From positions 171,322 to 235,321 of the forward strand of contig CAMXJY010000001.1 of the NCBI GenBank assembly GCA_947244325.1: 64,000 bases of DNA, written 5' to 3'. This DNA comes from an uncultured Clostridium sp. (GTDB lineage Bacteria > Bacillota > Clostridia > TANB77 > CAG-508). Of this stretch, positions 16,367 to 30,764 are shown piece by piece. The notes under the pieces were generated by a model. That model worked only from the letters and a program-made list of their open reading frames with translations, did not search any database and was not told the DNA's origin. Made by a program: the position numbers and the translations under genes. Within the stretch, counting starts at the first letter, position 1; each line of letters starts with the position of its first letter.

Positions 16367-17017
16367 CTATATTTCGCGTGCTTTACATATAAGCCTTGTT
16401 ACTCCTCCAGGATTACATGTAATTAAAGTAACCTCTCTCACTTCTTCTTCAGGTGGATATAAACATTTTATATCATCTGGATTACAAGTATAAATATCAT
16501 ATATTTTATATGTAACTTTTGTTTGGGTTTCTTTGTTGATTAAATCAAATGTGTCTCCTACTTCTAATTCCTTTAATCTTTTAAGTAAATTTTTGTAGTT
16601 ATGACCTGTTATACAAAAGTTTCCAATCTCGTTTATATCTCCTCCGTAGAATTTAGTTACTGATAAATTTAATGAAGCATCATCCGTTTTTTCCAGAATA
16701 TTCTTTTTGACATCAATTTTATCAATTACTAATTCACCAATTACTTTGTAATTTCCCATTTTATTTGGTAATTCACTTACATCTACTTTTTCTAATTCTT
16801 TAACAGTATTTGTTTCAGTTATTGGCTCGTCTACTATAGTATTTGTTTCATCTGTATTTGTTGGTATGTACTCGTTATTTTTTTTACAATTCAACCAAAT
16901 GCATATTCCTACAATTACTATAATAGCTACAAGAATTAATATCGGGATTAAAAACTTATTTTTATTTGATTTTTCTTCTGCAAATCTTTTTCCCTTGTGA
17001 CTAGGCTGCTTTTCCAT
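16367..17017 (-). CDS. sortase (class B/D-type), membrane anchored
   Basis: 216 aa with an N-terminal TM, a catalytic TLITC motif, and a His region (CITGHNY). Immediately upstream of the LPQTG substrate gene. Confidence 0.75.
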   Translation of the reverse strand: MEKQPSHKGKRFAEEKSNKNKFLIPILILVAIIVIVGICIWLNCKKNNEYIPTNTDETNTIVDEPITETNTVKELEKVDVSELPNKMGNYKVIGELVIDKIDVKKNILEKTDDASLNLSVTKFYGGDINEIGNFCITGHNYKNLLKRLKELEVGDTFDLINKETQTKVTYKIYDIYTCNPDDIKCLYPPEEEVREVTLITCNPGGVTRLICKAREI

Positions 17018-17293: not shown

Positions 17294-17519
17294 ATTTTTA
17301 ATAACAGGTATCCGAGAATTCGTTCGCTACGTGAAGATCATGATTTAACTCAAAAAGAAATAGCCAAAATCCTTAATATGTCACAAACTGGCTATTCAAA
17401 ATATGAAACTGGTGAAAACGATATTCCTTCAAAAATTTTAATCGAACTAGCAAAATATTATAAAACTTCAGTTGATTATTTGTTAGGTATTACAGATGAA
17501 ATTAAACCTTACCCATAAT
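17294..17519 (+). CDS. XRE-family helix-turn-helix transcriptional regulator (small, about 74 aa); start codon non-canonical (ATT?) or mutated
   Basis: Frame encodes ..RYPRIRSLREDHDLTQKEIAKILNMSQTGYSKYETGENDIPSKILIELAKYYKTSVDYLLGITDEIKPYP*, a typical Clostridial HTH_XRE protein. A strong GGAGG RBS sits at 17281-17285 but there is no ATG/GTG/TTG in frame, hence the ORF track missed it. Confidence 0.55.
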
Positions 17520-17553
17520 CTCCTTGACTTTTTATTTATTTTAACATCAAAAA

Positions 17554-17582
17554 AACTGGTAATTTTAATTACCAGTTTTTTA
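17554..17582 (+). terminator. rho-independent terminator AACTGGTAAT-tttaa-TTACCAGTT + T6
   Basis: 9-bp stem followed by TTTTTT, 35 nt after the XRE stop. Confidence 0.75.
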
Positions 17583-17601
17583 TATTCATATTATTATATT
17601 T

Positions 17602-17628
17602 TAGACAAAACCTCGGTCCCCATGTCTA
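17602..17628. repeat. palindromic element copy A: TAGACAAAACCTCGGTCCCCATGTCTA (overlaps the stop of the downstream minus gene)
   Basis: 6-bp stem + 15-nt loop. The loop is the reverse complement, with 1 mismatch, of the copy at 24125-24151. Confidence 0.6.
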
Positions 17629-18162
17629 TTTTTTATCATCAAAATTTATAAATTTACTTACGAATCCAACTATAGCGGTTGAATTTTGTTTTGCTATTTC
17701 TTTTGTTACTGCTTTTCCTCCAACTGTAAGTGATGCTACTATAGCACTAAATACAAATTGTATTTGTGAACTCATTCCATAATTTTCTGTAAGCTTTAAT
17801 GCAATCATTGCACTTATTGCTCCACTAAGTACTCCACATATATCTCCTATTACATCTGCACAAAAATTTGATACTTTTGCAGAATTTCTTATCATTTTTA
17901 TAGAAGTTTTTGCTCCTTTTATTTTTTTACTTGCTTGTGCATGAAAATCTTCTTCATTTGCTACTGTAACTGCTACACCTATTAAATCAAATAAAACACC
18001 TACTAAAATTACTAATATTAAAACTATTACTCCTAATATTATATTTAATTTTGAAATTGCTGTATTTGATATATATGAAAATAGCAATGATAGAATAAAA
18101 GTGGTAATAGCTATTCCTATTACCCAACTATTGTTATTATTTTTTTTCGATTTTTCTTTCAT
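17626..18162 (-). CDS. membrane protein with a nucleoside-recognition (Gate) domain, SpmB-like
   Basis: 178 aa with 2 N-terminal TM helices. C-terminal SGAISAMIALKLTENYG resembles the SpmB/Gate-domain SGAAALGVTAELIKTYG. Assignment tentative. Confidence 0.4.
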   Translation of the reverse strand: MKEKSKKNNNNSWVIGIAITTFILSLLFSYISNTAISKLNIILGVIVLILVILVGVLFDLIGVAVTVANEEDFHAQASKKIKGAKTSIKMIRNSAKVSNFCADVIGDICGVLSGAISAMIALKLTENYGMSSQIQFVFSAIVASLTVGGKAVTKEIAKQNSTAIVGFVSKFINFDDKK

Positions 18163-18439
18163 AGTATTCTTTATAATTAATTCTCCTTATTTTACATATA
18201 TTAATTTGATTCTTATTTTTTAGAAAATTTAAGTTTAAAAATTTTCTAAAAAATAATGAATGATTTTTACTATATAACATTTATAACTTTTTAATATAGA
18301 ACAAATCTGAAAAAATCTCAGATTATTTCAGTAAATTTGTTCGTGTGCCAAATTTATGCAATAAATTTGTGTACAATTTTTAGCGAAGCTTTTATATAAT
18401 AGGAAAGTATCACTTTCCTATTATAAAATAAATTATAAT

Positions 18440-19010
18440 TGGTAGGAACTTAAGTAAACTTTACGGTTTAGGTCTAGCAGATTTTCTCTATTTTTCACTT
18501 TCTATTACTAGAAAGCCGTTTCCGTTTAAGAAAAATACCCCTCATGCGAGGTCGCCAGATCACCACTTAAATCCGTACCTTAATCCTTAAATTCCCATGC
18601 TTATAATTTTAAGCAAACACTCTAGAAATTTTCTTTGAGTATCCTTGCCTGCTATTAGTCTTTTTTGCAACAAAAGTTTCATAATCAAATATAAAAAAGA
18701 TATGGCCGATATCTAAATTATATTTAAACGATTAATCCCCAGTTATCACTCAAGACAGTCATTACCACTACATAACAGATTGCTATATAGGTTTACCTAT
18801 TCAAATGAATAAGTCTCAACGAAAACAGGAATCATCTGTATGCCATTACAGGCTATCCTAATTTCTTTACTCTTCAGGACCACGCAAAACTGGGCGTAAT
18901 GCGCAGACTCTTGAAAAACTTCGACTGATAATACTTTCTAGTAGATTTTTAGGCCCACCCTCATAACAGGAGTGATACACTAGAATAATGCACCAATGCG
19001 ATATATTATA
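18440..19010. ncRNA. candidate large structured non-coding RNA (unclassified); ORF-free, locally GC-rich (~40-45% against a ~25% background)
   Basis: The 1066-nt gap between genes (18163-19228) has no ORF >=60 aa. The core has CG-containing, non-repetitive, GC-enriched stretches (gcgaggtcgccagatcaccac, ccacgcaaaactgggcgtaatgcgcagactc, aggcccaccctcataacaggagtg) typical of structured RNAs in AT-rich Firmicutes. Confidence 0.3.
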
Positions 19011-19228
19011 TCAGTTTGATATTTTTTTAGCAAATCTTTTGCCAACTTCTTTTAAAATGAATTTGCATTTTGCACTTATCAAAAATTAATTTATCTCTTT
19101 GATTCTCTTTTTTTCTTTCTTATACTATATAATTCTTGTTGTAAGATTTTTTAATATTCTAAAAAAAATTAGGCTAAAATAAAGTTGTTTCTATGGAAAA
19201 TGTTATTTATGCTTTTTTATATTTTATT

Positions 19229-22200
19229 CTATTCTACACTTTTTAATGATTCTATCATATCTACCTTTTTTAAAGAAAAATATGTTATAAAATTAACTAC
19301 AAATGTAAATATAATTGTTATTAAACATGCATATAAATAACTTTGTGGTAAAATTACTCTTTTAAATCTTAATATTCCTATTTCACAAGTTCCTAATATA
19401 AACGAATTTAAAATATATCCAGCTACTAATCCAAACACAATTCCTATTGCTGTTAAAACAACAATTTCTCTTGTTACATAATCATATACTTCTTTATCAT
19501 AAAATCCTAAAACTTTTATTGTTGCAAGCTCTCTAATTCTTTCACTTATATTTATATTAGATAAATTGTAAAGAACTATAAAAGCTAAAACTCCTGCTGA
19601 TACTATTAATACATATACAACTAAATTCATAGCACTTAAAGTATCATCCATTATTTGTACAAGATAACTTGTTAATGTTATTGATGCTATTTTAGAATCT
19701 TTTAAAATCTTTTCTGATAATTCATATTCTTTATTTTCATCTATTTTTTCTGTGTATTTTGTTAACAATACATTAGTAGATACTTTTTCTTTAAATAAAT
19801 GTTCATACATATTCTTTGTCATATAGACATAATGTGATATGTAATGTTCTGTTATTCCACCAACTTTTACTTTATATTCATTTTCATCTGAATCACTTAA
19901 GATAATCTCATCTCCTACTTTTACATTTATTAATTGAGATAATTTATCTGTTATTATTACTTCGTTATCATTTAAGTTTAATTTTTCTCCTGTTTTTAAG
20001 TCTTTTAATCTAATAACTTTATCTAAATCTTCTTTACTTTCTGCTACTAATATTTGTGCCTCTTCTTCTAAATCTCCATTTTTTATATCATCAGATGTTA
20101 AATAAATTTCTGTACAACTTTCTATTAGATCTTCACTTTCTAAATTTTCTTTTAAAGCACTAATTTCTTCTTTTGTTAATGTATTTTTTAGTCCTATAAG
20201 CATATCATAATTATAAATATCTAAATATTGATAATCCATTATCTTGGAAATTGAATCTTTTAATCCAAATCCTGCAACTATTAATGCTGTACAACCACAT
20301 ATTCCTACTACTGTCATTAAAAATCTTTTCTTATATCTAAACATATTTCTAGCTGTAACTTTTTGTGTAAAATTAAATCTGTTCCATATAAAAGGTATTT
20401 TTTCAATTAATACTCTTTTTCCTGCTTTTGGAGCTTTTGGTCTCATCATTTCAGCTGGTGTACTTATAAGTTCTTTATTTGCTGTATATATTGTTGCTCC
20501 AACAATACATATTGACATTATTGCAACACCCATTACTGTATAATATCTATTAAGTTCTATTACCATTTCAGATATATCATACATCATCTGATACATCGAT
20601 ATTATTATTCTTGGAAAAAATTCAAGTCCAAATATTGCACCTAATATTCCTCCTATTAATGAAGCAAGTAAAGAATAAATTATATACTTAGACATTATTT
20701 GTATTTTATTATATCCTAAAGCTTTTAAAGTTCCTATTTGTACTCTTTCTTCTTCAACCATTCTAGACATTGTTGTTAAACTTATTAATGTTGCAATTAT
20801 AAAAAATACTATTGGAAATGCTTCTCCTAATTTTTCTACATTTCCTGTATCTTGTGTATAACTACTAAATCCAGAATTATCATCTCTACTAAAAATATAC
20901 CATTTAGCATTTTCAATATCATTTACTTTTTCTCTTGCATCTATAAGTTTTCCTTCTGCATCTGCTATCTTTTCATTAAATTCTTGTTTTTTATCTAATA
21001 ATTCTTGCTGGCCTTCTGCTAATTTATTTTTTGCATCTTGAATTTCTTTTTTACCTTTTGCAATTTCTTTTTCTGCATCAGTAAACTTTTGTGCAGTTTC
21101 ATTTCTTTTTTGTGCAAGTGTTGCTTTTGATTCTGCAAGCTGATTATATCCAACCGCTATTTGATTTTGTCCTGATACTAATTTATTTTCAGCATCGCTT
21201 AACTCTTTTTGAATTTGATTTAATTGCACTTCCAACGCTGATTTTTGATTTTGACATTCTAAAATTCCTGCATTTATTTGGTTTAATTTTTCACTCGTCA
21301 TTCCATAGTTTTCTAATTCTTGCTTTTCTGCATTCATACTCGCTATTTGAGTTTTTACATATTCTATTGCAGATACAAGCTCACTTGTATCTCCTTCTGC
21401 TGTCTCTAATTCTTTTTGATATCCTGCAAGTGTATTATTTAGCATTACTAATGTTTCATCTATTTTACTAATTGTAGATAATACATTTTCAACTAATGCC
21501 TTGCTTTCTTGTAGTTCATTAATTTTTGAATCTAATGTATTTATTCCTGTTTGTAATTGTGATATTCCTGCTTCTGCTTCTTGTTTTTTTGCAGATAAAA
21601 GTGCATTTCCATCATTTATTTCTGTTTGTGACATTGCAAGTTTAGTTTCAGCTTCTGAAATTTGAGCTTCTGCATTTGCAAATTCTACTTCTGCTGTTTC
21701 TTTTCCATCTGCTAATTCTTTTTCTGCATTCTTTATCTCTTTTTCACCTTTTGCTATATCATTTTTTCCATCTGCAATTTCTTTTTCTGCATCTTGGATT
21801 TTCTTTTCTCCATCTGCTTTTTGCTGATTAAATTCTTTTTCTGCATCATCTAATTTCTGATTTGCTTCTGATATTAATTCATTATATCTAGCATTTTGTC
21901 TTTCTTCTTTTATTGACTCTAAATTATTTTCTACTTTTGATATTAATTCATCATATTCATCACTTATTGCATTATAATTTTTGCTATTTTCTGCTATAAT
22001 ATCTATTCCAGTATATATATCAGATACAATATTATTTTTATTTACATACATATAATATGTAACTTTTCCTGAGCCAAGTGTTGTAGTTCCTCTATCTCTT
22101 GATATATATAATGGACTTTTTACTATACCAACCACTTTTAATTTTGTATTTTTAAATGAGCTCTCTTCATCTTCAGTTAAGTTTTCTCTAATTTCTATAT

Positions 22201-22633
22201 AATCACCTATGCTGATTCCGTGTTTCATACTTGTTTCTATAACACATTCATCTTCATTTTGTGGAAGTTTTCCTTCTATAAGTTCTAGTTCATTAATCTC
22301 ATTTTCAAGAGCATATGCTTTTACAACAACCTCTTCATCATCTACAGTAACAAATACATCTTCACTATATGTTCCTATAGCTTTTTCTACTCCATCTACT
22401 TTTGAAATAGCATCAATATCATCATCTGTAAGTCCTAATGTTGAAACAACATTAATATCATATACATTGTATTTATCTAAATATGTATCTAATGTTATTT
22501 TCATATCAGGACTTGTTGCTCTTACACCCGCAAAAAAGCCTACCCCCATAAATGCCATAAGCAATATGGAGATAAACCTTTTATTTGTTTTCTTAATTTG
22601 TTTTATACTATCTTTTAATAAAGCTTTTTTCAT
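19229..22633 (-). CDS. FtsX-like ABC transporter permease (MacB/YxdM-type, two FtsX domains) with a ~380-aa coiled-coil extracellular insert; no cognate ATPase adjacent
   Basis: 1134 aa with an N-terminal TM, a long heptad-repeat region (..KEIADGKNDIAKGEKEIKNAEKELADGK..), then two 4-TM FtsX permease modules (..LGYNKIQIMSKYII.., ..KVLGFYDKEVYDYV..). Confidence 0.8.
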   Translation of the reverse strand: MKKALLKDSIKQIKKTNKRFISILLMAFMGVGFFAGVRATSPDMKITLDTYLDKYNVYDINVVSTLGLTDDDIDAISKVDGVEKAIGTYSEDVFVTVDDEEVVVKAYALENEINELELIEGKLPQNEDECVIETSMKHGISIGDYIEIRENLTEDEESSFKNTKLKVVGIVKSPLYISRDRGTTTLGSGKVTYYMYVNKNNIVSDIYTGIDIIAENSKNYNAISDEYDELISKVENNLESIKEERQNARYNELISEANQKLDDAEKEFNQQKADGEKKIQDAEKEIADGKNDIAKGEKEIKNAEKELADGKETAEVEFANAEAQISEAETKLAMSQTEINDGNALLSAKKQEAEAGISQLQTGINTLDSKINELQESKALVENVLSTISKIDETLVMLNNTLAGYQKELETAEGDTSELVSAIEYVKTQIASMNAEKQELENYGMTSEKLNQINAGILECQNQKSALEVQLNQIQKELSDAENKLVSGQNQIAVGYNQLAESKATLAQKRNETAQKFTDAEKEIAKGKKEIQDAKNKLAEGQQELLDKKQEFNEKIADAEGKLIDAREKVNDIENAKWYIFSRDDNSGFSSYTQDTGNVEKLGEAFPIVFFIIATLISLTTMSRMVEEERVQIGTLKALGYNKIQIMSKYIIYSLLASLIGGILGAIFGLEFFPRIIISMYQMMYDISEMVIELNRYYTVMGVAIMSICIVGATIYTANKELISTPAEMMRPKAPKAGKRVLIEKIPFIWNRFNFTQKVTARNMFRYKKRFLMTVVGICGCTALIVAGFGLKDSISKIMDYQYLDIYNYDMLIGLKNTLTKEEISALKENLESEDLIESCTEIYLTSDDIKNGDLEEEAQILVAESKEDLDKVIRLKDLKTGEKLNLNDNEVIITDKLSQLINVKVGDEIILSDSDENEYKVKVGGITEHYISHYVYMTKNMYEHLFKEKVSTNVLLTKYTEKIDENKEYELSEKILKDSKIASITLTSYLVQIMDDTLSAMNLVVYVLIVSAGVLAFIVLYNLSNINISERIRELATIKVLGFYDKEVYDYVTREIVVLTAIGIVFGLVAGYILNSFILGTCEIGILRFKRVILPQSYLYACLITIIFTFVVNFITYFSLKKVDMIESLKSVE

Positions 22634-22679
22634 TTTTTAATTTCTGTTACCTTTTCTATTTTGTTTAAATAATAATTAT

Positions 22680-22718
22680 GTGGACGATTATTGCTTTTAC
22701 CGCTTATATATCGTCCAC
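22680..22718 (-). terminator. pgi terminator hairpin GTGGACGAT-N21-ATCGTCCAC
   Basis: 9-bp perfect stem immediately 3' of pgi. Same stem sequence as the hairpin at 26858-26906. Confidence 0.55.
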
Positions 22719-22725
22719 TAACATT

Positions 22726-24027
22726 TTAATAACCTGGTTTTTCTAATAATTTGAACATGTTTTTCTTATATTCCTCAACACCTGGTTGATTAAATGGATT
22801 TACTCCTAAAAGAGAGCCTGAAATTGCACATGCCTTTTCAAAGAAATATATTAATTCTCCTAAATTCTCTTCATCTAATTTTTCTATTTCTATCATGAAA
22901 TTTGGTACATTTCCAGTAACATGTGCTAGAACTGTTCCTTCCATAGCTTTACTATTTACATATCCTAAATTTTTTCCTGCTAAATAGTTTAGTCCATCTA
23001 AATTTTGATCATCTGATTGTATTGTTATTTCAGAAGAATTTGATTGTATTTTTAGTACTGTTTCCATTAAATCTCTTCTTCCATCTTGAATATATTGACC
23101 CATTGAGTGTAAATCTGTTGTTAAATCAACTCCAGCTGGGAAAATTCCTTTTAAATCTTTTCCTTCACTCTCTCCATAAAGTTGTTTCCACCATTCTGTC
23201 ATATAGTGAAGTTTTGGTTCATAGTTTGCTAATATTTCAATTGTTTTTCCAGATCTATATAATAAATTTCTTGCTACTGCATATTTATAGCAATCATTAT
23301 ATTTTAAATTAGGATCTGAATATTTATCTTGTGCAAGCTTTGCACCATTCATTAATTTATCAATATCAATTCCAGCAGTAGCAATTGGTAATAATCCTAC
23401 TGCTGTAAGAACTGAAAATCTACCACCTACATTATCAGGAATAACAAATGTTTCATATTTTTCCTCATTTGCTAAAGTTTTTAATGCTCCTTTTTGTTTA
23501 TCTGTAGTTACGTATATTCTTTTTCTTGCTTCAACTACACCATATTTTGTTTCTAATACTTCTCTAAAAATTCTAAATGCTATTGCTGGTTCTGTTGTAG
23601 TTCCAGATTTTGAAATAACATTTATAGATACATCTTTATCACTAATAAATTCTAATAAATCATTCATATATACTGGACTTAAATTGTTTCCTGCATATAC
23701 AATTTGTGGAGTTTTTCTTTTTCCTTCTGGCATACTATTATGAAAACTATGTGTTATAGCTTCAATAACAGCTCTTGCTCCTAAATAAGATCCACCTATT
23801 CCTATAACAACAAGTACATCTGAATCATTTTGAATTTTTTTAGCTGCTTTTTTTATTCTTTCAAATTCTTCTCTATCATAATTTGTAGGAAGTTCAATCC
23901 ATCCTAAAAATTCCTTTTCATCATTTGCTTTTTCATGAAGTTTCTCATGAATTACAGCTACTTCGTCAGTTAATTCATTAATTACATTATCATTTATACT
24001 TGAATTTTCATAATTAAATTTAATCAT
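22726..24027 (-). CDS. pgi: glucose-6-phosphate isomerase
   Basis: 433 aa, Bacillus-type PGI ([15 protein letters not shown], catalytic region GESEGK). Confidence 0.92.
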
Positions 24028-24124
24028 TTTAAATCTTTCCTTTCTTAATTTATAACATATATATTATATTTTTCACTTTTCTAAAAGATTATATCATAAT
24101 GAAAAATTTTTTCAATTACTTTTT

Positions 24125-24151
24125 TAGACATGGGGACGGAGGTTTTGTCTA
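24125..24151. repeat. palindromic element copy B: TAGACATGGGGACGGAGGTTTTGTCTA (opposite orientation to copy A), plus a partial copy at 24182-24195
   Basis: Same 6-bp arms and a 15-nt loop complementary to copy A. It lies in the divergent pgi/rqcH promoter region, so it is not a terminator here. Confidence 0.6.
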
Positions 24152-24323
24152 AATAATTTTAATGTTTAAAGAAAACATTCATCCCATGTCTAAAATTTAC
24201 TCTTTTCAGGTTGACTTTTTATCCTCTAAGCTATATTATATTAAGTGTTTTTTAACATTAGCAAAGTATTCATTTTATAGGAAATGCGAAAAACTTTACT
24301 ATAAAATTTAAAGGAGATTATAT

Positions 24324-26036
24324 ATGGCATTTGATGGTTTTATCACAAAATCTATTATTTCTGAGCTTGAGCCTTCACTTGTTGGAGCAAAAGTAAATAA
24401 AGTATTTGAGCCTACAAAAAACGAAATTATTTTGGGGCTTTATAATAATGGTATAAATTACGCTTTAGAGCTTTGTGCAAATCCAGAATTTTGTAGAATT
24501 TGTTTAACTACTCACACAAAACCTAATCCACAAAATGCATACAATTTTTGTATGTTACTTAGAAAATATTTAACTGGTGGAAAAATAATAAGTATATCTA
24601 ATTATGATTTAGAAAGAACTATAGAAATAAAATTTGAAGTTTATAATGAATTAAATGATTTAGTAACAAGAAAACTATTTATAGAAATTATGAGTAGACA
24701 AAGTAATATCATTTTAACAAACGAAAAAAATATTATTATAGATACTTTAAAACATTTTGATAACAATACTAGAGAACTTTTACCAGCACATGAATATACT
24801 CCTGTGCCTACTAATAAAATTAGTTTTATTGATATAAAATCTTTTGAAGAATTTGATAATATAGTAAATTCTTCTGACGAAAGTAGTTTAGCCAAAATAC
24901 TTATGAATACTTTTATTGGTTTTAGTAAACCTTTTATAAAAGAAAATTTAAAAATTTTAGAAATTTCAGATACAGATTATTCTAATGGCGATTTAAAAAA
25001 AGTTTATAATCATATAAAAGAATTTATAAATAATATGGGAACTACTAATATTTCTTGCAAACAAATTTCTGATAAAGATTATACTCTTATTTTAAATAAA
25101 GAAAATCCTAGTGAAAATAATCTTGATATCAATTTCTTTATTGATGACTTCTATTTTAATAAAGAACAAAATTCAATTTTTATAAATTCAAGAAATAGTT
25201 TATTAAAAATTGTTTCTGCTTCTTTAAAAAAAGTATACAAAAAAATTGAAAATATAAACTCTAAACTTAAAGAATGTGATGAAATGGATACTTTTAGATT
25301 ATATGGTGAACTTTTAACAGCAAATTTATATAAAGTAAATCCTAATGAAAATCTTGAAGAAATTACAGTAGATAATTATTATGATGAAAATAAACCTGTA
25401 GTTATTCCATTAGATAAAAGCATATCTATACATAAAAACATAGAAAAATATTTTAAAAAATATAATAAATTAAAAAATGCTCTTTCTATTGTATCTGAAC
25501 AAAAAAAAGAAGCTGAAAAAGAATTAGATTATATTGAAAGTATTGTATTTAATTTAAGTAATAGTAGAACTCTTAGTGATATAAATGAAGTTTATGAAGA
25601 AATTGCAGAAAATGTTTCTACTAAAAAAGCTCTTTCTCAAAAAGAAAAAAATAAAGTTTCAAAAAAGAAAACAAAAGATACTATAATTGATTTAGAAAGT
25701 ATTGATATTGGAAAGTTCAAAATATATATTGGAAAAAATAATATTCAAAATGATTACATAAGCTTAAAATTTGCAAATCCAAATGATATATGGTTTCATA
25801 CTCAAAAAATACATGGTAGCCATGTACTTTTAAGAAATTCAGAAAACTTAGAATTTTCTGATATTCCAGAAGATATTTTATTTAAATGTGCAGTTTTAGC
25901 TAAACAAAATAGTAAAGCTTCTAATAGCTTAAATGTACCAGTAGATTACTGCTATGCTAGATATGTAAAAAAAGTTTCTGGAGCTAAACCTGGTATGGTT
26001 ATTTATAATAATTTTAAAACTATAATTGTAAAATAA
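24324..26036 (+). CDS. rqcH: Rqc2/RqcH homolog (NFACT family, fibronectin-binding protein A-like), ribosome quality control
   Basis: 570 aa. The N-terminal NFACT-N (MAFDGFITKSIISEL...), coiled-coil middle and NFACT-R C-terminal pattern match YloA/FbpA. Confidence 0.8.
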   Translation: MAFDGFITKSIISELEPSLVGAKVNKVFEPTKNEIILGLYNNGINYALELCANPEFCRICLTTHTKPNPQNAYNFCMLLRKYLTGGKIISISNYDLERTIEIKFEVYNELNDLVTRKLFIEIMSRQSNIILTNEKNIIIDTLKHFDNNTRELLPAHEYTPVPTNKISFIDIKSFEEFDNIVNSSDESSLAKILMNTFIGFSKPFIKENLKILEISDTDYSNGDLKKVYNHIKEFINNMGTTNISCKQISDKDYTLILNKENPSENNLDINFFIDDFYFNKEQNSIFINSRNSLLKIVSASLKKVYKKIENINSKLKECDEMDTFRLYGELLTANLYKVNPNENLEEITVDNYYDENKPVVIPLDKSISIHKNIEKYFKKYNKLKNALSIVSEQKKEAEKELDYIESIVFNLSNSRTLSDINEVYEEIAENVSTKKALSQKEKNKVSKKKTKDTIIDLESIDIGKFKIYIGKNNIQNDYISLKFANPNDIWFHTQKIHGSHVLLRNSENLEFSDIPEDILFKCAVLAKQNSKASNSLNVPVDYCYARYVKKVSGAKPGMVIYNNFKTIIVK

Positions 26037-26037
26037 A

Positions 26038-26080
26038 ACACAAGGTTCTCACTAAGAAGTGCTGAACCTTGTGTTTTTGT
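26038..26080 (+). terminator. rqcH rho-independent terminator ACAAGGTTC-loop-GAACCTTGT + T-run
   Basis: 9-bp perfect stem followed by GTTTTTGTT. Confidence 0.75.
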
Positions 26081-26102
26081 TACATTGCATATTGAAGGAA
26101 TC

Positions 26103-26687
26103 TTAGCTCACGTATTGCACTGTACTCGTCATTTTGTCCATCAACCAGTTTTCCGTGTCAACCACTTTATTTGGGTCTAAAGCAACCCACAATGGAGAAA
26201 TTCCCATCATGGCTATCATTGACTCCGACTTGTTGGCGATAGCCTTCTCAAACTGCTCCACACTTTGGTTTTTCGGAACAAATGTCGTTGATTTGATGAC
26301 AATAAGCTTGCATTTTTCTGGCCTCTCTGATATCACCTGAGTAATCCACTCTTTACGAGCCTTCTTTGTCATCATTCTTTCAACCGTATACAGCTTCGCA
26401 TGTGCTTCTTTTACTTTGTCACACTCCTGATCAATCATCTCCATTGCCTGCTTGCGGTTTTTAAACTTAAATTCGGGCATCTGGTATACCTCTGCTATAC
26501 TGAATTCTGCTCCCCAAGCTTTTTTCAGCTGGTCATTAATATATTTAAACAGAGTATCTAATTCATCCAGTTTTTTGCAAAAGTACCCGTATTGAGACCG
26601 AACCTCGCACCATCTTTTTTCAAAATGCTTTTTTCCAAAAAATGGTTTAATGTTATTTGCTGCCAAAAGTTCCTCAAAATTTCTCAT
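26103..26687 (-). CDS. hypothetical protein, compositionally foreign (~40% GC), function unknown
   Basis: 194-aa ORF, Trp-rich, with no family I can recognise. Flanked by convergent terminators of rqcH and ackA. Its codon usage (in-frame CGG, GCC, CTC, CCG) differs from its neighbours. Confidence 0.5.
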   Translation of the reverse strand: MRNFEELLAANNIKPFFGKKHFEKRWCEVRSQYGYFCKKLDELDTLFKYINDQLKKAWGAEFSIAEVYQMPEFKFKNRKQAMEMIDQECDKVKEAHAKLYTVERMMTKKARKEWITQVISERPEKCKLIVIKSTTFVPKNQSVEQFEKAIANKSESMIAMMGISPLWVALDPNKVVDTENWLMDKMTSTVQYVS

Positions 26688-26778
26688 GTTTCATCCCTCT
26701 TCATCTACTTAAGAAAATTACAGTATGCGAAAAAAATTACTTAATACACTCTTCGCAATACTATAACAATAAATTAGT

Positions 26779-26817
26779 TGCAAATTTATTATACCATATT
26801 TTATGTAAATTTGCAAA
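26779..26817. promoter_or_regulatory. 10-bp perfect inverted repeat TTGCAAATTT-N19-AAATTTGCAA upstream of the foreign gene
   Basis: Perfect palindrome arms about 100 nt upstream of the 26687 start. Candidate operator. Confidence 0.3.
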
Positions 26818-26857
26818 TTAAGCTAAAAAATCACTCTCATAAAAAAAGAACAAAAAT

Positions 26858-26906
26858 GTGGACGATTCAGTATAGTTTTGTCTTTTGCATGTTAAATATC
26901 GTCCAC
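26858..26906. terminator. bidirectional terminator GTGGACGAT-N31-ATCGTCCAC downstream of ackA (26961)
   Basis: Same 9-bp stem as the pgi terminator. T-runs on both sides. Confidence 0.55.
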
Positions 26907-26960
26907 TTTTGTTCTTATATAGATTCTTAAATATTTATAATATAAGTTTTCACCAATATT

Positions 26961-28154
26961 TTATTTTGTTACTAATTCATATGTGTCCTTTGCTATTATT
27001 AATTCCTCATTTGTTGGAATTATATATATTTTTACTTTAGAATCTTCTGTTGAAATACATTTTTCTTTTCCTCTTGTTTTATTTGCTTCTAAGTCTAATT
27101 TTACTCCAAATGGTTCTAAATATTTGCAAACTCTTTCTCTTGTTTCAATTCCATTTTCTCCAACTCCACCAGCAAAAGTTAAAACATCTAATCCACCAAG
27201 TGAAACTACATATTGTCCTATATATTGAGCTATCTTATATGCTTGACTTTCAAGTGTAAGTATAGATCTTTGGTCTCCCATGTTGTATCCATCTTCAATA
27301 TCTTTATAGTCTAATGATACTCCAGATACTCCCCATGCTCCTGATTGTTTATTTAATATCTCTTCTATATCTTCTGGTCCAAGATTATCTCTTTTCATAA
27401 TATATGGAATTATTGCTGGATCTATATCTCCACATCTTGTTGCCATAGGAATACCGGCTAGTGGTGTTAATCCCATACTTGTATCAACAGATTTCCCACC
27501 ATCTATTGCACATATTGATGCTCCTTGACCTAAATGACAATTTATTACTTTTAAATTTTCTTTATTTTCTCCTATAAGTTCTGCTACTCTTTGATCTACA
27601 TATCTATGGCTAGTTCCATGAAATCCATATTTACGAATTTTATAACTTGTATAATATCTATATGGTATTTGATATACATATGCTTTTGCTGGCATTGTTT
27701 GATGAAATGCTGTATCAAATACTGCTACCATTGGAACATTTGGAAGAGCATTTCTTGCAGCCTTTATTCCTGCTACTCCCGCTGGATTATGAAGTGGTGC
27801 TAAATCAATACATTTTTCAATCTCACTAATAACTTCATCATTTATTATAACTGACTGGCTAAACATTTCTCCACCATGAACTATTCTGTGTCCTACTGCT
27901 CCTATCTCTTCTAAACTGTTTATTAAATTATATTCAGGTTTTTGTAATACTTCTAAAACAAAGCTTATTGCTTCATCGTAATCTCTAGCAATATGCAATA
28001 ATTCTTCTTTGTTTCCATTTATATTTAATTTAAGTGTTGTTTTCATTCCACCTATTCTTTCAAAATTTCCTTTTGCCATTCTTTCATTTGTATCCATATT
28101 TATAAGTTGAAATTTAAGTGATGAACTTCCACAATTTAAAACTAATATTTTCAT
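26961..28154 (-). CDS. ackA: acetate kinase (copy 1)
   Basis: 397 aa with MKILVLNCGSSSLKFQL and acetate/propionate kinase family motifs. Confidence 0.9.
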   Translation of the reverse strand: MKILVLNCGSSSLKFQLINMDTNERMAKGNFERIGGMKTTLKLNINGNKEELLHIARDYDEAISFVLEVLQKPEYNLINSLEEIGAVGHRIVHGGEMFSQSVIINDEVISEIEKCIDLAPLHNPAGVAGIKAARNALPNVPMVAVFDTAFHQTMPAKAYVYQIPYRYYTSYKIRKYGFHGTSHRYVDQRVAELIGENKENLKVINCHLGQGASICAIDGGKSVDTSMGLTPLAGIPMATRCGDIDPAIIPYIMKRDNLGPEDIEEILNKQSGAWGVSGVSLDYKDIEDGYNMGDQRSILTLESQAYKIAQYIGQYVVSLGGLDVLTFAGGVGENGIETRERVCKYLEPFGVKLDLEANKTRGKEKCISTEDSKVKIYIIPTNEELIIAKDTYELVTK

Positions 28155-28256
28155 AAATTATTTCCTTTCCAAGTTTTATATTATCATACCAATTTTAACA
28201 TTAATTTAATTACTTAACAATAGTAATTTTTCAAAAGAATAGAGCTTTTGTCTAAA

Positions 28257-28287
28257 ACTATTAATTTTAGACAAAAACTCCATACTA
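28257..28287 (-). terminator. terminator hairpin TTTTGTCTAAAA-ctattaat-TTTTAGACAAAA (related to palindromic element A/B)
   Basis: 12-bp perfect stem immediately 3' of ackA copy 2. Shares the TTTTAGACAAAA arm with elements A and B. Confidence 0.55.
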
Positions 28288-28291
28288 ATGC

Positions 28292-29491
28292 CTATTTTCC
28301 TTCTACAATTCTCTTTGTATCTCTTGCTATAACCATTTCTTCATCTGTTGGAATTACAAATGCTGCAATTTTAGAATCATCGGTAGAAATTTTCTTTTCT
28401 TCACTTCTTACATTATTTCTTTCTAAGTCTAACTTTAATCCCATCCATTCTAAGTTTTCACAAATTTTCTTTCTAATGTTTATTTGATTTTCACCTATAC
28501 CACCTGTAAATACAACTGCGTCAATTCCTTTTAATGATACTGCATATTTTGCAACAAATTGAGCTATAATTTTTGTAAATAATTCTATTGCAACTTTAGC
28601 TTTTGGTTTATCATCTTCATATGAAGCAAGTTCTATTTCTCTAAAGTCTGGATTCAATCCTGTTATACCATATAATCCTGATTTTTTATTTAATACAGTT
28701 GTTACTTCTTTAGTAGTTAAATTTTCTCTATCCATTATTTCTGTTACAACAGCTGGGTCTAAATCTCCTGAACGTGTAACCATTGCAATTCCACTTAAAG
28801 GAGAAAGTCCCATTGATGTTTCTATAGATTTTCCACCATCTATAGCACATATTGATGCTCCTTGACCAATATGGCATGTAACCATTTTTATTTCTTCTAT
28901 AGGTTTTTCCATTAATTTTGCACATAATCTTGAAACATATTGATGAGATGTACCATGAAATCCATATTTTCTAATTCCATATTTTTCATAATATTCATAA
29001 GGAATTGGATATAAATAATTTTCTTGTGGGATTGTTTGATGAAATGCTGTATCAAATACACCAACCATAGGAACTCCTGGCATAGCTTTTTGGCAAGCTC
29101 TTATTCCACGTATTGTTGCTGGATTATGAAGTGGTGCAAGTGGTGAACATGAATCATATTTTGCAATTACATCTTCATCTATTCTAACTGATTCACTAAA
29201 TTTTTCTCCACCATGACATAATCTATGTCCTACTGCAGATATTTCTGATAAATCTTTTATTACTCCATAATCATTATGAACTAATTGTTCTAAAACTATT
29301 TTTAAAGCCTCTTCATGATTCATTACAGGAACTTTTGTAACATATTTTTCTCCATTAACTTTATGAGTAACAAAAGCTTCTTGTTCTCCTATTCTTTCAA
29401 AATTTCCTTTTGCTAAAAGTTTTTCACCTTCCATATCTATTAATTGATATTTTAATGATGAACTTCCACAGTTTACTACTAAAATTTTCAT
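28292..29491 (-). CDS. ackA: acetate kinase (copy 2, divergent paralog, ~55% identity to copy 1)
   Basis: 399 aa with MKILVVNCGSSSLKYQL. Same family, clearly diverged. Confidence 0.9.
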   Translation of the reverse strand: MKILVVNCGSSSLKYQLIDMEGEKLLAKGNFERIGEQEAFVTHKVNGEKYVTKVPVMNHEEALKIVLEQLVHNDYGVIKDLSEISAVGHRLCHGGEKFSESVRIDEDVIAKYDSCSPLAPLHNPATIRGIRACQKAMPGVPMVGVFDTAFHQTIPQENYLYPIPYEYYEKYGIRKYGFHGTSHQYVSRLCAKLMEKPIEEIKMVTCHIGQGASICAIDGGKSIETSMGLSPLSGIAMVTRSGDLDPAVVTEIMDRENLTTKEVTTVLNKKSGLYGITGLNPDFREIELASYEDDKPKAKVAIELFTKIIAQFVAKYAVSLKGIDAVVFTGGIGENQINIRKKICENLEWMGLKLDLERNNVRSEEKKISTDDSKIAAFVIPTDEEMVIARDTKRIVEGK

Positions 29492-29672: not shown

Positions 29673-30665
29673 TTATTGAGCTTGGACAGCAGTAATAGCC
29701 ACAACCCCCGCAATATCCTCAGCAGAACATCCTCTTGATAAATCATTAACTGGTCTTGCAATACCTTGGCAAAGTGGTCCATATGCTTCTGCCTTTCCTA
29801 ATCTTTGAGTTAATTTATATCCTATATTTCCAGCATTCAAATCTGGGAATATTAATGTATTAGCATTTCCTGCAACATTACTATTGGGAGCTTTACTTTT
29901 TGCTACTTCTGGAACTATTGCTGCATCTAATTGTAATTCTCCATCTACTTTTAATTCTGGGTATTTTTCTTTTATCATGTTAGTTGCATCTATAACTTTT
30001 TGAGTTAATTCTGACTTTGCACTTCCCATTGTAGAATAAGAAAGCATTGCTACTTTTGATTCTTTTCCTACTAATTGTTCAAAGCTTTTACTTGAAGAAT
30101 TAGCTATTTCTACAAGTTCTTCTGAACTAGGATTTTGATTTAATCCACAATCTCCAAAAACAAATACTCCATCTTCTCCATATTCGCATTCTGGTACTAC
30201 CATTAAAAAGAATGCTGATACTAATTTAGTTCCAGGTGCTGTTTTTAAAATTTGAAGTGCTGGTCTTAAAGTATCTGATGTTGAATGAATTGCACCTGAA
30301 ACAAGTCCATCTGCTTCTTCTAATTTTACCATCATCATACCAAAATACACTTCATCTTTTATTAATTCTTCTGCTTTTTCTAAGGTCATACCTTTTTCTT
30401 TTCTAAGTTCATATAATTTCTCTGCATATACTTTACTTTTTTCTGATTTTAAAGGATTTATAATTGTTGCTTTTGAAATATCTAATCCCTCATCATTTGC
30501 CATTTTGTTTATATTTTCTTCATTTCCTATTAGAATTACATCAGCATATCCTTCTTTTAAAACTGTAGCTGTAGCTTTAATTGTTCTAATATCACTAGCT
30601 TCTGGTAATACAATTTTTTTTATGTCTTTTTTTGCTCTTTGTTTTATCGTATCAATAAAGTTCAT
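29673..30665 (-). CDS. pta: phosphate acetyltransferase
   Basis: About 330 aa from the internal Met (MNFIDTIKQRAKK...); the ORF extends 9 codons further upstream. Pta family pattern throughout. Confidence 0.9.
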   Translation of the reverse strand: MNFIDTIKQRAKKDIKKIVLPEASDIRTIKATATVLKEGYADVILIGNEENINKMANDEGLDISKATIINPLKSEKSKVYAEKLYELRKEKGMTLEKAEELIKDEVYFGMMMVKLEEADGLVSGAIHSTSDTLRPALQILKTAPGTKLVSAFFLMVVPECEYGEDGVFVFGDCGLNQNPSSEELVEIANSSSKSFEQLVGKESKVAMLSYSTMGSAKSELTQKVIDATNMIKEKYPELKVDGELQLDAAIVPEVAKSKAPNSNVAGNANTLIFPDLNAGNIGYKLTQRLGKAEAYGPLCQGIARPVNDLSRGCSAEDIAGVVAITAVQAQ

Positions 30666-30764
30666 TATTTTTTCCTCCATAAATCTAATCAAAATAAATT
30701 TATTATTAGCATTTAAAATTAATTAATTCTAATAATATTTTATTAAATAACTTGCTTAAATCAA

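Follow-up and report, generated by a model that had tools for sequence, protein, structure and literature searches.

Why does one small palindrome recur at three intergenic sites of a single stretch of bacterial DNA, in both orientations, once across a stop codon and once between two divergent promoters? The stretch is 64,000 nucleotides long (hereafter the window; contig CAMXJY010000001.1, positions 171,322 to 235,321, assembly GCA_947244325.1) and comes from an uncultured Clostridium sp. of a low-GC (about 26%) lineage of gut Clostridia, the nearest named relatives of which are Candidatus Scatovivens metagenome-assembled genomes (MAGs). Here we confirm that the repeat is real and place it in a family of hairpins found in related species. 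On balance, we think it probable that the 27-mers in the window are a species subfamily of clade-wide short non-coding palindromic repeats that behave like repetitive extragenic palindromes (REPs) and their paired forms (REPINs) or like miniature inverted-repeat transposable elements (MITEs), and that are defined by their loop and copied in trans by an enzyme acting on a folded single strand. The family is apparently undescribed.

A 27-nucleotide palindrome at two intergenic sites and a probable third

The repeat unit, TAGACA-TGGGGAC[N]GAGGTTT-TGTCTA, has 6-bp arms (TAGACA/TGTCTA) enclosing a 15-nt loop. Read in the opposite orientation, as TAGACAAAACCTC[G/C]GTCCCCATGTCTA, it occurs at 17602–17628 (+) and 24125–24151 (−) with no mismatch besides the central base, as the original prediction had proposed from the identical arms and the one-base difference between loops; the chance expectation is 0 and 100 shuffles gave 0 matches. 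Copy 1 (site 1) was rightly seen to overlap a stop codon, as its opening three bases are the oapA stop TAG (17626–17628). Copy 2 (site 2) was equally well placed in a divergent promoter region, between those of pgi and rqcH. The partial copy suspected beside it is real: TCCCATGTCTAAAA at 24182–24195, of which CCCATGTCTAAAA occupies 24183–24195, lies in inverted orientation and forms a 75-nt palindrome with copy 2. This REPIN-like doublet occupies the space between two −35 boxes (starts 24115 and 24211), a promoter scan having located the pgi promoter at 24115–24088 (TTGAAA-16-TGnTATAAT, 11/12 matches) and the rqcH promoter at 24211–24239.

The third site had been drawn at 28257–28287. It is real and shares the arms, but that interval covers one arm only; the site comprises two inverted copies of the 16-mer TTTTAGACAAAANCTC, at 28242–28257 (−) and 28265–28280 (+) (5 matches compared with 0.6 expected), together with a degenerate 27-mer, copy 3. 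The upstream butyrate/acetate kinase gene has its stop codon (28292–28294) in the opening three bases of copy 3, and the whole decayed relative spans 28242–28294. The three sites align over about 41 columns with GGGGAC on top (site 1 on the − strand, site 2 on +, site 3 on −). Homology of site 3 to the 27-mer family is no more than probable, because the covariance model described below (R1) scores it at only 9.8 bits. RNA folding, a check proposed at the outset, gave −26.5 kcal/mol (z −4.9) on the + strand and −23.8 kcal/mol (z −5.6) on the − strand for the site 2 palindrome, −26.9 kcal/mol (z −6.9) for the terminator-like site 3 hairpin of 20 pairs, and −6.7 kcal/mol (z −1.3) for the lone site 1 hairpin, which is weak.

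These energies bear on the simplest alternative, that the sites are independent intrinsic terminators and their likeness is coincidental or convergent. Rho-independent terminators are likewise hairpins at gene ends, A- and T-runs flank many family members and site 3, and site 3 is itself terminator-like. However, a stable GC-rich stem with a U-tract is found only in the inner hairpin of site 3 and not at sites 1 and 2. The weak stem at site 1 is followed by AAAAUAU, with no U-tract on the sense strand, and a canonical bidirectional terminator (17548–17582) sits 20–50 nt past it, downstream of oapA; this, and not the 27-mer, likely terminates oapA, and the terminator role originally assigned to copy 1 does not stand. 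No gene ends at site 2. Furthermore, GGGAC lies in the unpaired loop, whereas terminators share no conserved 15-nt unpaired loop across genes or species, and the copies agree at 26 of 27 bases, an agreement expected 0 times by chance. Independent terminators are barely conceivable on this evidence and are effectively refuted by the sequence statistics.

A hairpin family with a conserved loop in related Clostridia

The exact 20-mer core of the 27-mer, AAACCTCNGTCCCCATGTCTA, has no match in genome, viral and metagenome contig collections (this species not being among them), about 12 kb of DNA beyond the window holds no further copy, and even with up to six mismatches the 27-mer is absent from a set of 80 related loci (1.3 Mb) of uncultured gut Clostridia. 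The loop word TGGGGACG occurs about 24 times in these loci, compared with an estimated 2–3 by chance, and nearly always opens a hairpin loop whose arms vary copy by copy (examples in Table 1). The family plan is thus a variable, compensating stem and a 15-nt loop opening NNGGGAC(G/A). In a permutation control, GGGAC stood at loop position 3 of a 15-nt loop with a stem of at least 6 bp 26 times out of 488, and the other 19 permutations of the word did so 0–8 times. A related subfamily, GCCAAAGGGGACGGGCTAT, was found in only three metagenome stretches, with no viral match.

R1, trained on 20 hairpins from other species only, was run on the 64-kb window. It ranked site 2 at the top (24123–24153 (+), 29.5 bits, E = 1.2e-5) and site 1 second (17600–17630 (−), 21.1 bits, E = 0.0033), with the next best match at E = 0.37; these E-values are rough because calibration was shortened. 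The window copies therefore score as members of a clade-wide hairpin family, which upholds the earlier view that they are more than generic terminators and that a REP/MITE-like element fits best. In ~76 kb of this species the motif does occur at these sites only, but the homologous family elsewhere argues against independent terminators. Overall, R1 has 46 matches with E < 1 in about 20 species. In the stem, 95% of cells are paired and both sides change in 7/7 pairs, a covariation that is partly circular because the hairpins were chosen for pairing.

All 36 tabulated copies are intergenic. Most lie directly after stop codons and not in promoters, an overlap of 2–6 nt with the stop codon being seen in at least 8. 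Single copies number 14 sense and 7 antisense, a strand bias that is not significant. The seven doublets, near-perfect palindromes of 70–170 nt, all place the GGGAC copy first and its inverse (GTCCC) second, the order also seen at site 2. Tandem clusters are present in L022 and L048, and density reaches about one copy per 3–5 kb (L029, L032, L035, L037 and L048), with housekeeping genes between the copies. Copies are near-identical inside one genome and different between genomes. Orthologous spacers turn over accordingly: the pgi-to-thioesterase spacer is 12–40 nt long and empty in several species and filled by different family members in others, a member stands right after pgi in seven species (always sense), and different subfamilies follow gpsA in L035 and L037. 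At none of the three positions orthologous to the window sites do the nearest relatives carry the element; L012 carries a terminator of its own 3′ of oapA, and the kinase–kinase spacer of L018 is 25 nt long without a hairpin, compared with 137 nt in the window species. Presence at orthologous sites is therefore polymorphic between species, but not among strains of this species.

The units are thus copied within a genome, and every landing place is intergenic, usually on a stop codon, just past one, or in the gap that separates divergent promoters. Related species have other units, or none, in the orthologous spacers. Decay is by truncation, as in the second copy at site 2 and in site 3. Because the copies are exclusively intergenic, show no significant strand bias, form inverted doublets and turn over at orthologous spacers, the pattern is the signature of non-autonomous REP/REPIN- or MITE-like repeats and not of a conserved regulatory site.

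Two forms of regulatory site were weighed against this pattern. A conserved loop with a covarying stem is what would be expected of a cis-acting RNA hairpin recognised through its loop by a protein and selected at gene ends to stabilise, process or attenuate 3′ untranslated regions (UTRs). Many copies lie 0–30 nt past stop codons, GGGAC is in the sense orientation in about two-thirds of single copies, site 1 is in sense orientation within the oapA 3′ UTR, and the post-pgi members of all seven species are sense. Yet the 14:7 ratio is not significant, doublets put the loop on both strands, and site 2 falls outside the predicted transcripts, upstream of the two strong promoters; many orthologous spacers are empty and the filled ones differ in sequence. 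The lone hairpin is weak and matches nothing in Rfam: only OLE RNA passes the gathering threshold in the window, and permissive scans of site 2 and L037 returned chance-level or generic long-hairpin matches. We consider such an RNA element unlikely.

Alternatively, TAGACA-N15-TGTCTA or GGGACG could be a double-stranded DNA operator for a transcription factor, for example the XRE-like protein encoded close to site 1. The centres of the inverted arms are separated by 21 bp, and two of the sites border on promoter elements: site 2 on the pgi −35 box and site 3 on candidate promoters for the downstream kinase gene. Against this, site 1 has no promoter and lies between the 3′ ends of convergent genes, the arms vary among the copies of relatives while the supposed spacer is the conserved part, the arm motif TTAGACA alone is not enriched in the window, and the pgi promoter of relatives has a different conserved box. 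An operator is very unlikely, and the original suggestion of a regulator or RNA-binding site, although it may yet hold, finds no support in stems that vary in relatives, an orientation without significant bias and copies that mostly follow stop codons.

Strain variation and a possible route of spread

Within the species, we compared 20 contigs from three lineages, including NCBI MAG GCA_948988285.1 and assemblies from JGI, ENA and Logan. Site 1 is present in 13/13 contigs covering it, and the 11 sequences covering site 3 show no variation there. The base after GGGGAC is triallelic: on the GGGGAC strand, the three lineages have C, G or A at site 1 and G, G or A at site 2, so that the two sites carry the same allele in two of three lineages. 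As the variable base is the G of a CpG, parallel deamination of methylated C is one possible cause of the shared alleles. The lineage of L001 and L002 additionally carries an exact 13-bp tandem duplication, TAGACATGGGGAC followed by TAGACATGGGGAC, without microhomology, at window position 17615–17628 (L001, L002, L091 and L092). It is seen in two independent assemblies (the NCBI MAG and a JGI contig) and stops precisely before the variable loop base. The triallelic base and the duplication fit, but do not prove, DNA breakage and joining after GGGGAC.

The same observations raise a further alternative, that a site-specific recombinase like the serine invertases Gin and Hin (sites gix and hix) uses sites 1 and 2 for crossover and that the oapA–OLE–ftsX–pgi segment between them is invertible. 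The two sites are near-perfect inverted repeats 6.5 kb apart, paired inversely as gix/hix sites are; their central base agrees in two of three lineages and the end of the 13-bp duplication falls at the centre. With the native gix core CTGTAAACCGAGGTTTTGGA (PMC5175349), site 1 also has ACCGAGGTTTTG in common, an identity of 12 nt. The Gin/Hin rule, however, calls for an invertase gene close by and a core AAASSWWSSTTT within a 12+2+12 site (PMC5175349), a layout that is out of register with the palindrome centre here. The left AAA of that core is missing because the window sites read GGACCGAGGTTT and GGACGGAGGTTT; the AAASS half is replaced by GGGAC, and the resemblance is limited to the other half, GAGGTTT, which is not conserved in the family. 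No invertase or other recombinase gene was found among the window open reading frames (ORFs) scanned and no inversion was seen: gene order is identical in the 7/7 contigs spanning sites 1 and 2 (five distinct assemblies), and relatives without the repeat have the same order. Crossover sites are highly improbable, and we rejected the invertible segment on these grounds.

Returning to REP/REPIN- or MITE-like repeats, we suggest how they may spread. The basic unit is a hairpin with a free stem sequence and a 15-nt loop opening NNGGGAC(G/A), and the fuller form is two inverted units, GGGAC first and GTCCC second, around an AT-rich spacer. A trans-acting enzyme, analogous to an HUH/Y1 nuclease of the kind encoded by REP-associated tyrosine transposase (RAYT) genes, although none was found, may read the folded single strand through the conserved loop and cut and rejoin the DNA at the position after GGGGAC, which would explain both the triallelic base and a duplication that ends there.

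Among known systems, REP, BIME (bacterial interspersed mosaic element) and REPIN repeats, mobilised by RAYT/TnpA-REP enzymes of the HUH-Y1 type in Proteobacteria and others, are also short palindromes found only between genes, often at 3′ ends (PMC6006769, PMC3337134). They share with the present family a species-specific sequence on a common structural plan, within-genome subfamilies, and singlets, tandem clusters (here L022 and L048) and inverted doublets that fold into a larger hairpin, represented here by the seven in relatives and by window sites 2 and 3 as truncated doublets. A canonical REP has a GT[AG]G tetranucleotide 0–2 nt 5′ of the hairpin foot (PMC6006769), a fully paired basal stem of 7–20 bp and a loop of 2–5 nt, or else a bulged long stem (PMC6006769, PMC3337134). 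Many dispersed intergenic copies in each genome, and a single-copy cognate tnpA-REP gene with repeats on both sides, also belong to the canonical type. By contrast, there is no GTAG or GTGG at the feet of the window hairpins (AAAAAA before TAGACA, TTTTT before TAGACA and AAAA before TAGGCA) and the feet in relatives are equally varied; the window unit has a 6-bp stem (6–9 bp in the family) and a 15-nt loop, with a long stem only in the doublet; and the conserved part is that loop (NNGGGACG...) and not the foot. The host is a low-GC uncultured gut Clostridia lineage, and no RAYT gene was found in the DNA scanned. A REPtron-like arrangement was likewise rejected, as the repeat-flanked genes in relatives are housekeeping genes and the Y1 search described below was negative.

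Bacterial MITEs (Correia, RUP, BOX and the palindrome-associated transposable elements (PATEs) derived from IS200/IS605) are alike in being non-coding, about 30–170 bp long and bounded by terminal inverted repeats, in differing in presence between related genomes, and in inserting beside genes with possible side effects on promoters or terminators. They differ in that no consistent target-site duplication is seen here, TA flanking both window copies and some of those in relatives but not others, inverted ends being present; and the doublets are inverted, whereas PATE ends are direct. We know of no parent insertion sequence with ends matching the repeat.

Several points weigh against REP/REPIN- or MITE-like repeats. 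There is no clear target-site duplication, since TA flanks are not general across the family, and the canonical REP features are absent. Only two intact copies and one decayed copy occur in ~76 kb of this species, so that high copy number is not shown there, and as all strains carry both copies no insertion polymorphism was seen inside the species. Pfam scans of the window ORFs outside ~7–15 kb and 48–64 kb (the genes of the latter interval resemble polysaccharide-synthesis paralogues) detected neither a transposase nor a recombinase, and a loose tblastn search of ~1.6 Mb of fetched DNA with Y1 transposase probes gave none. The discovery of the family, moreover, was not fully independent of the window, because the search word was taken from the window motif. 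A literature search by sequence string returned nothing relevant to the repeat.

Any host effects of the repeat are secondary. Site 3 has probably been co-opted to terminate or attenuate transcription between the two kinase genes, and sites 1 and 2 are probably neutral passengers; the consequence for window genes is likely small, with only site 3 plausibly affecting transcription. The repeats matter rather as marks of recent genome turnover, with insertions beside oapA/OLE, pgi, rqcH and the butyrate/acetate kinase genes; as sequences that may break metagenome assemblies; and, through the triallelic loop base and the 13-bp duplication, as strain markers. REP/REPIN systems are well studied in Proteobacteria; to our knowledge, they are poorly charted in Firmicutes and not charted at all in uncultured small-genome gut Clostridia. 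A loop-conserved family would point to a different mode of recognition, possibly by a new domesticated nuclease. We go further only as a doubtful conjecture: that uncultured low-GC gut Clostridia (the Candidatus Scatovivens or CAG-type lineage) carry an undescribed REPIN-like system recognised by the conserved 15-nt loop instead of a GTAG foot; that its cognate is a new enzyme processing single-stranded DNA, or possibly an RNA protein binding the loop; and that the enzyme cuts or joins right after GGGGAC.

Gene neighbourhood and other repeats

Table 1. Positions of the repeats and neighbouring genes in the window, with family members from related loci
Feature	Position	Strand	Details
Sortase gene	16367–17017	−	
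Small XRE-like ORF	about 17300–17518	+	
Canonical bidirectional intrinsic terminator	17548–17582	.	A-run, ACTGGTAATT..AATTACCAGT, T-run; between oapA and the convergent XRE-like ORF
Copy 1 (site 1)	17602–17628	−	TAGACA-TGGGGACCGAGGTTT-TGTCTA; oapA 3′ UTR
oapA	17626–18162	−	
OLE RNA	18423–19012	−	277.7 bits
FtsX-type permease gene	19229–22633	−	
pgi	22726–24027	−	
REPIN-like doublet (site 2)	24121–24195	+	Copy 2, AT-rich spacer and truncated inverted second copy; 75-nt palindrome
Copy 2 (site 2)	24125–24151	+	TAGACA-TGGGGACGGAGGTTT-TGTCTA; between divergent pgi and rqcH promoters
rqcH (NFACT)	24324–26036	+	
194-aa ORF	26103–26687	−	
Two acetate/butyrate kinase genes	26961–28154, 28292–29491	−	
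Strong hairpin (site 3)	28242–28280	−	Formed by the right arm of copy 3 with a second, inverted and truncated copy, TTTTAGACAAAAGCTC (28242–28257); U-rich tail follows
Decayed copy 3 (site 3), probable	28268–28294	−	TAGGCA-TTAGTATGGAGTTTT-TGTCTA; 6+15+6 layout, 21/27 identical; GGGAC lost
PTA_PTB	29673–30692	−	
Family example, L050			CTGCACA-TGGGGACGTTAAAAA-TGTGCAG
Family example, L034			GTGTGTCA-TGGGGACGTGTTTTT-TGACACAC
Family example, L048			ATGTCTCAT-TGGGGACGTTTCCTA-ATGAGACAT
Family example, L035 and L037			TGCCAA-AGGGGACGGGCTATT-TTGGCA
Family example, L037			AGGGATTT-TAGGGACGGGGCTTC-AAATCCCT
Doublets, L037	7037–7146, 12098–12270, 14040–14150		
Doublet, L035	12250–12380		
Doublet, L048	9141–9208		

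The gene beside site 1 encodes a 178-aa membrane protein and follows a full-length OLE RNA (Rfam RF01071), the position expected of oapA; homologues of the protein are carried by L012 and L031. The convergent XRE-family helix–turn–helix frame (~72 aa) has a good GGAGG ribosome-binding site and no ATG, GTG or TTG at the expected start, and gene callers give only a 46-aa C-terminal piece. In the terminator between these genes, the loop (17563–17568) is inverted between strain lineages, TTAAAA in some and TTTTAA in others on the − strand reading, a change of the kind expected of template switching in a palindrome. A replication terminus or dif-like site was considered for the window and rejected, as GC skew is uniformly negative across it.

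Upstream of pgi, the relatives L011, L013–L016, L018 and L030 carry a conserved box, ATTTCACATAAAAAACATA, just before the −10 region. The window species lacks this box; there the repeat doublet adjoins a different −35 region. Just after pgi, L032, and also L085 and L022, have another palindromic repeat, GTTATCCGTTCGAACGAAGTGAGTTACGGATAAC, single and in tandem, its sequence unrelated to the GGGAC family.

The 194-aa ORF between rqcH and the kinase genes has a GC content of 0.38–0.42, compared with 0.20–0.28 in its surroundings; the 80 related loci, in which rqcH adjoins the kinase gene, contain no homologue of it. This ORF, which has hairpins on its flanks, was probably inserted through horizontal acquisition; it falls in no Pfam or PHROG family, so no link could be drawn. 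A second hairpin family, specific to this species, has two copies with differing loops, AGTGGACGATAT...AATCGTCCACAT, at 22680–22718 and 26858–26906 (−), located past the stop codons of pgi and of the downstream kinase gene, respectively. This second family has the word GGACG in common with the main one, and is seen in strain contigs and absent from the 80 related loci. Six independent Logan contigs (L094–L099) stop about 75–105 nt past the downstream kinase gene stop, at the GTGGACGAT hairpin (~26860), which suggests either a recurrent assembly break at that repeat or strain variation beside the inserted ORF.

Farther along, at about 52700–61000 (−), a polysaccharide-synthesis cluster contains four tandem paralogous genes, probably glycosyltransferases, with 60–88% DNA identity over blocks and the repeat families D1–D7 and others.

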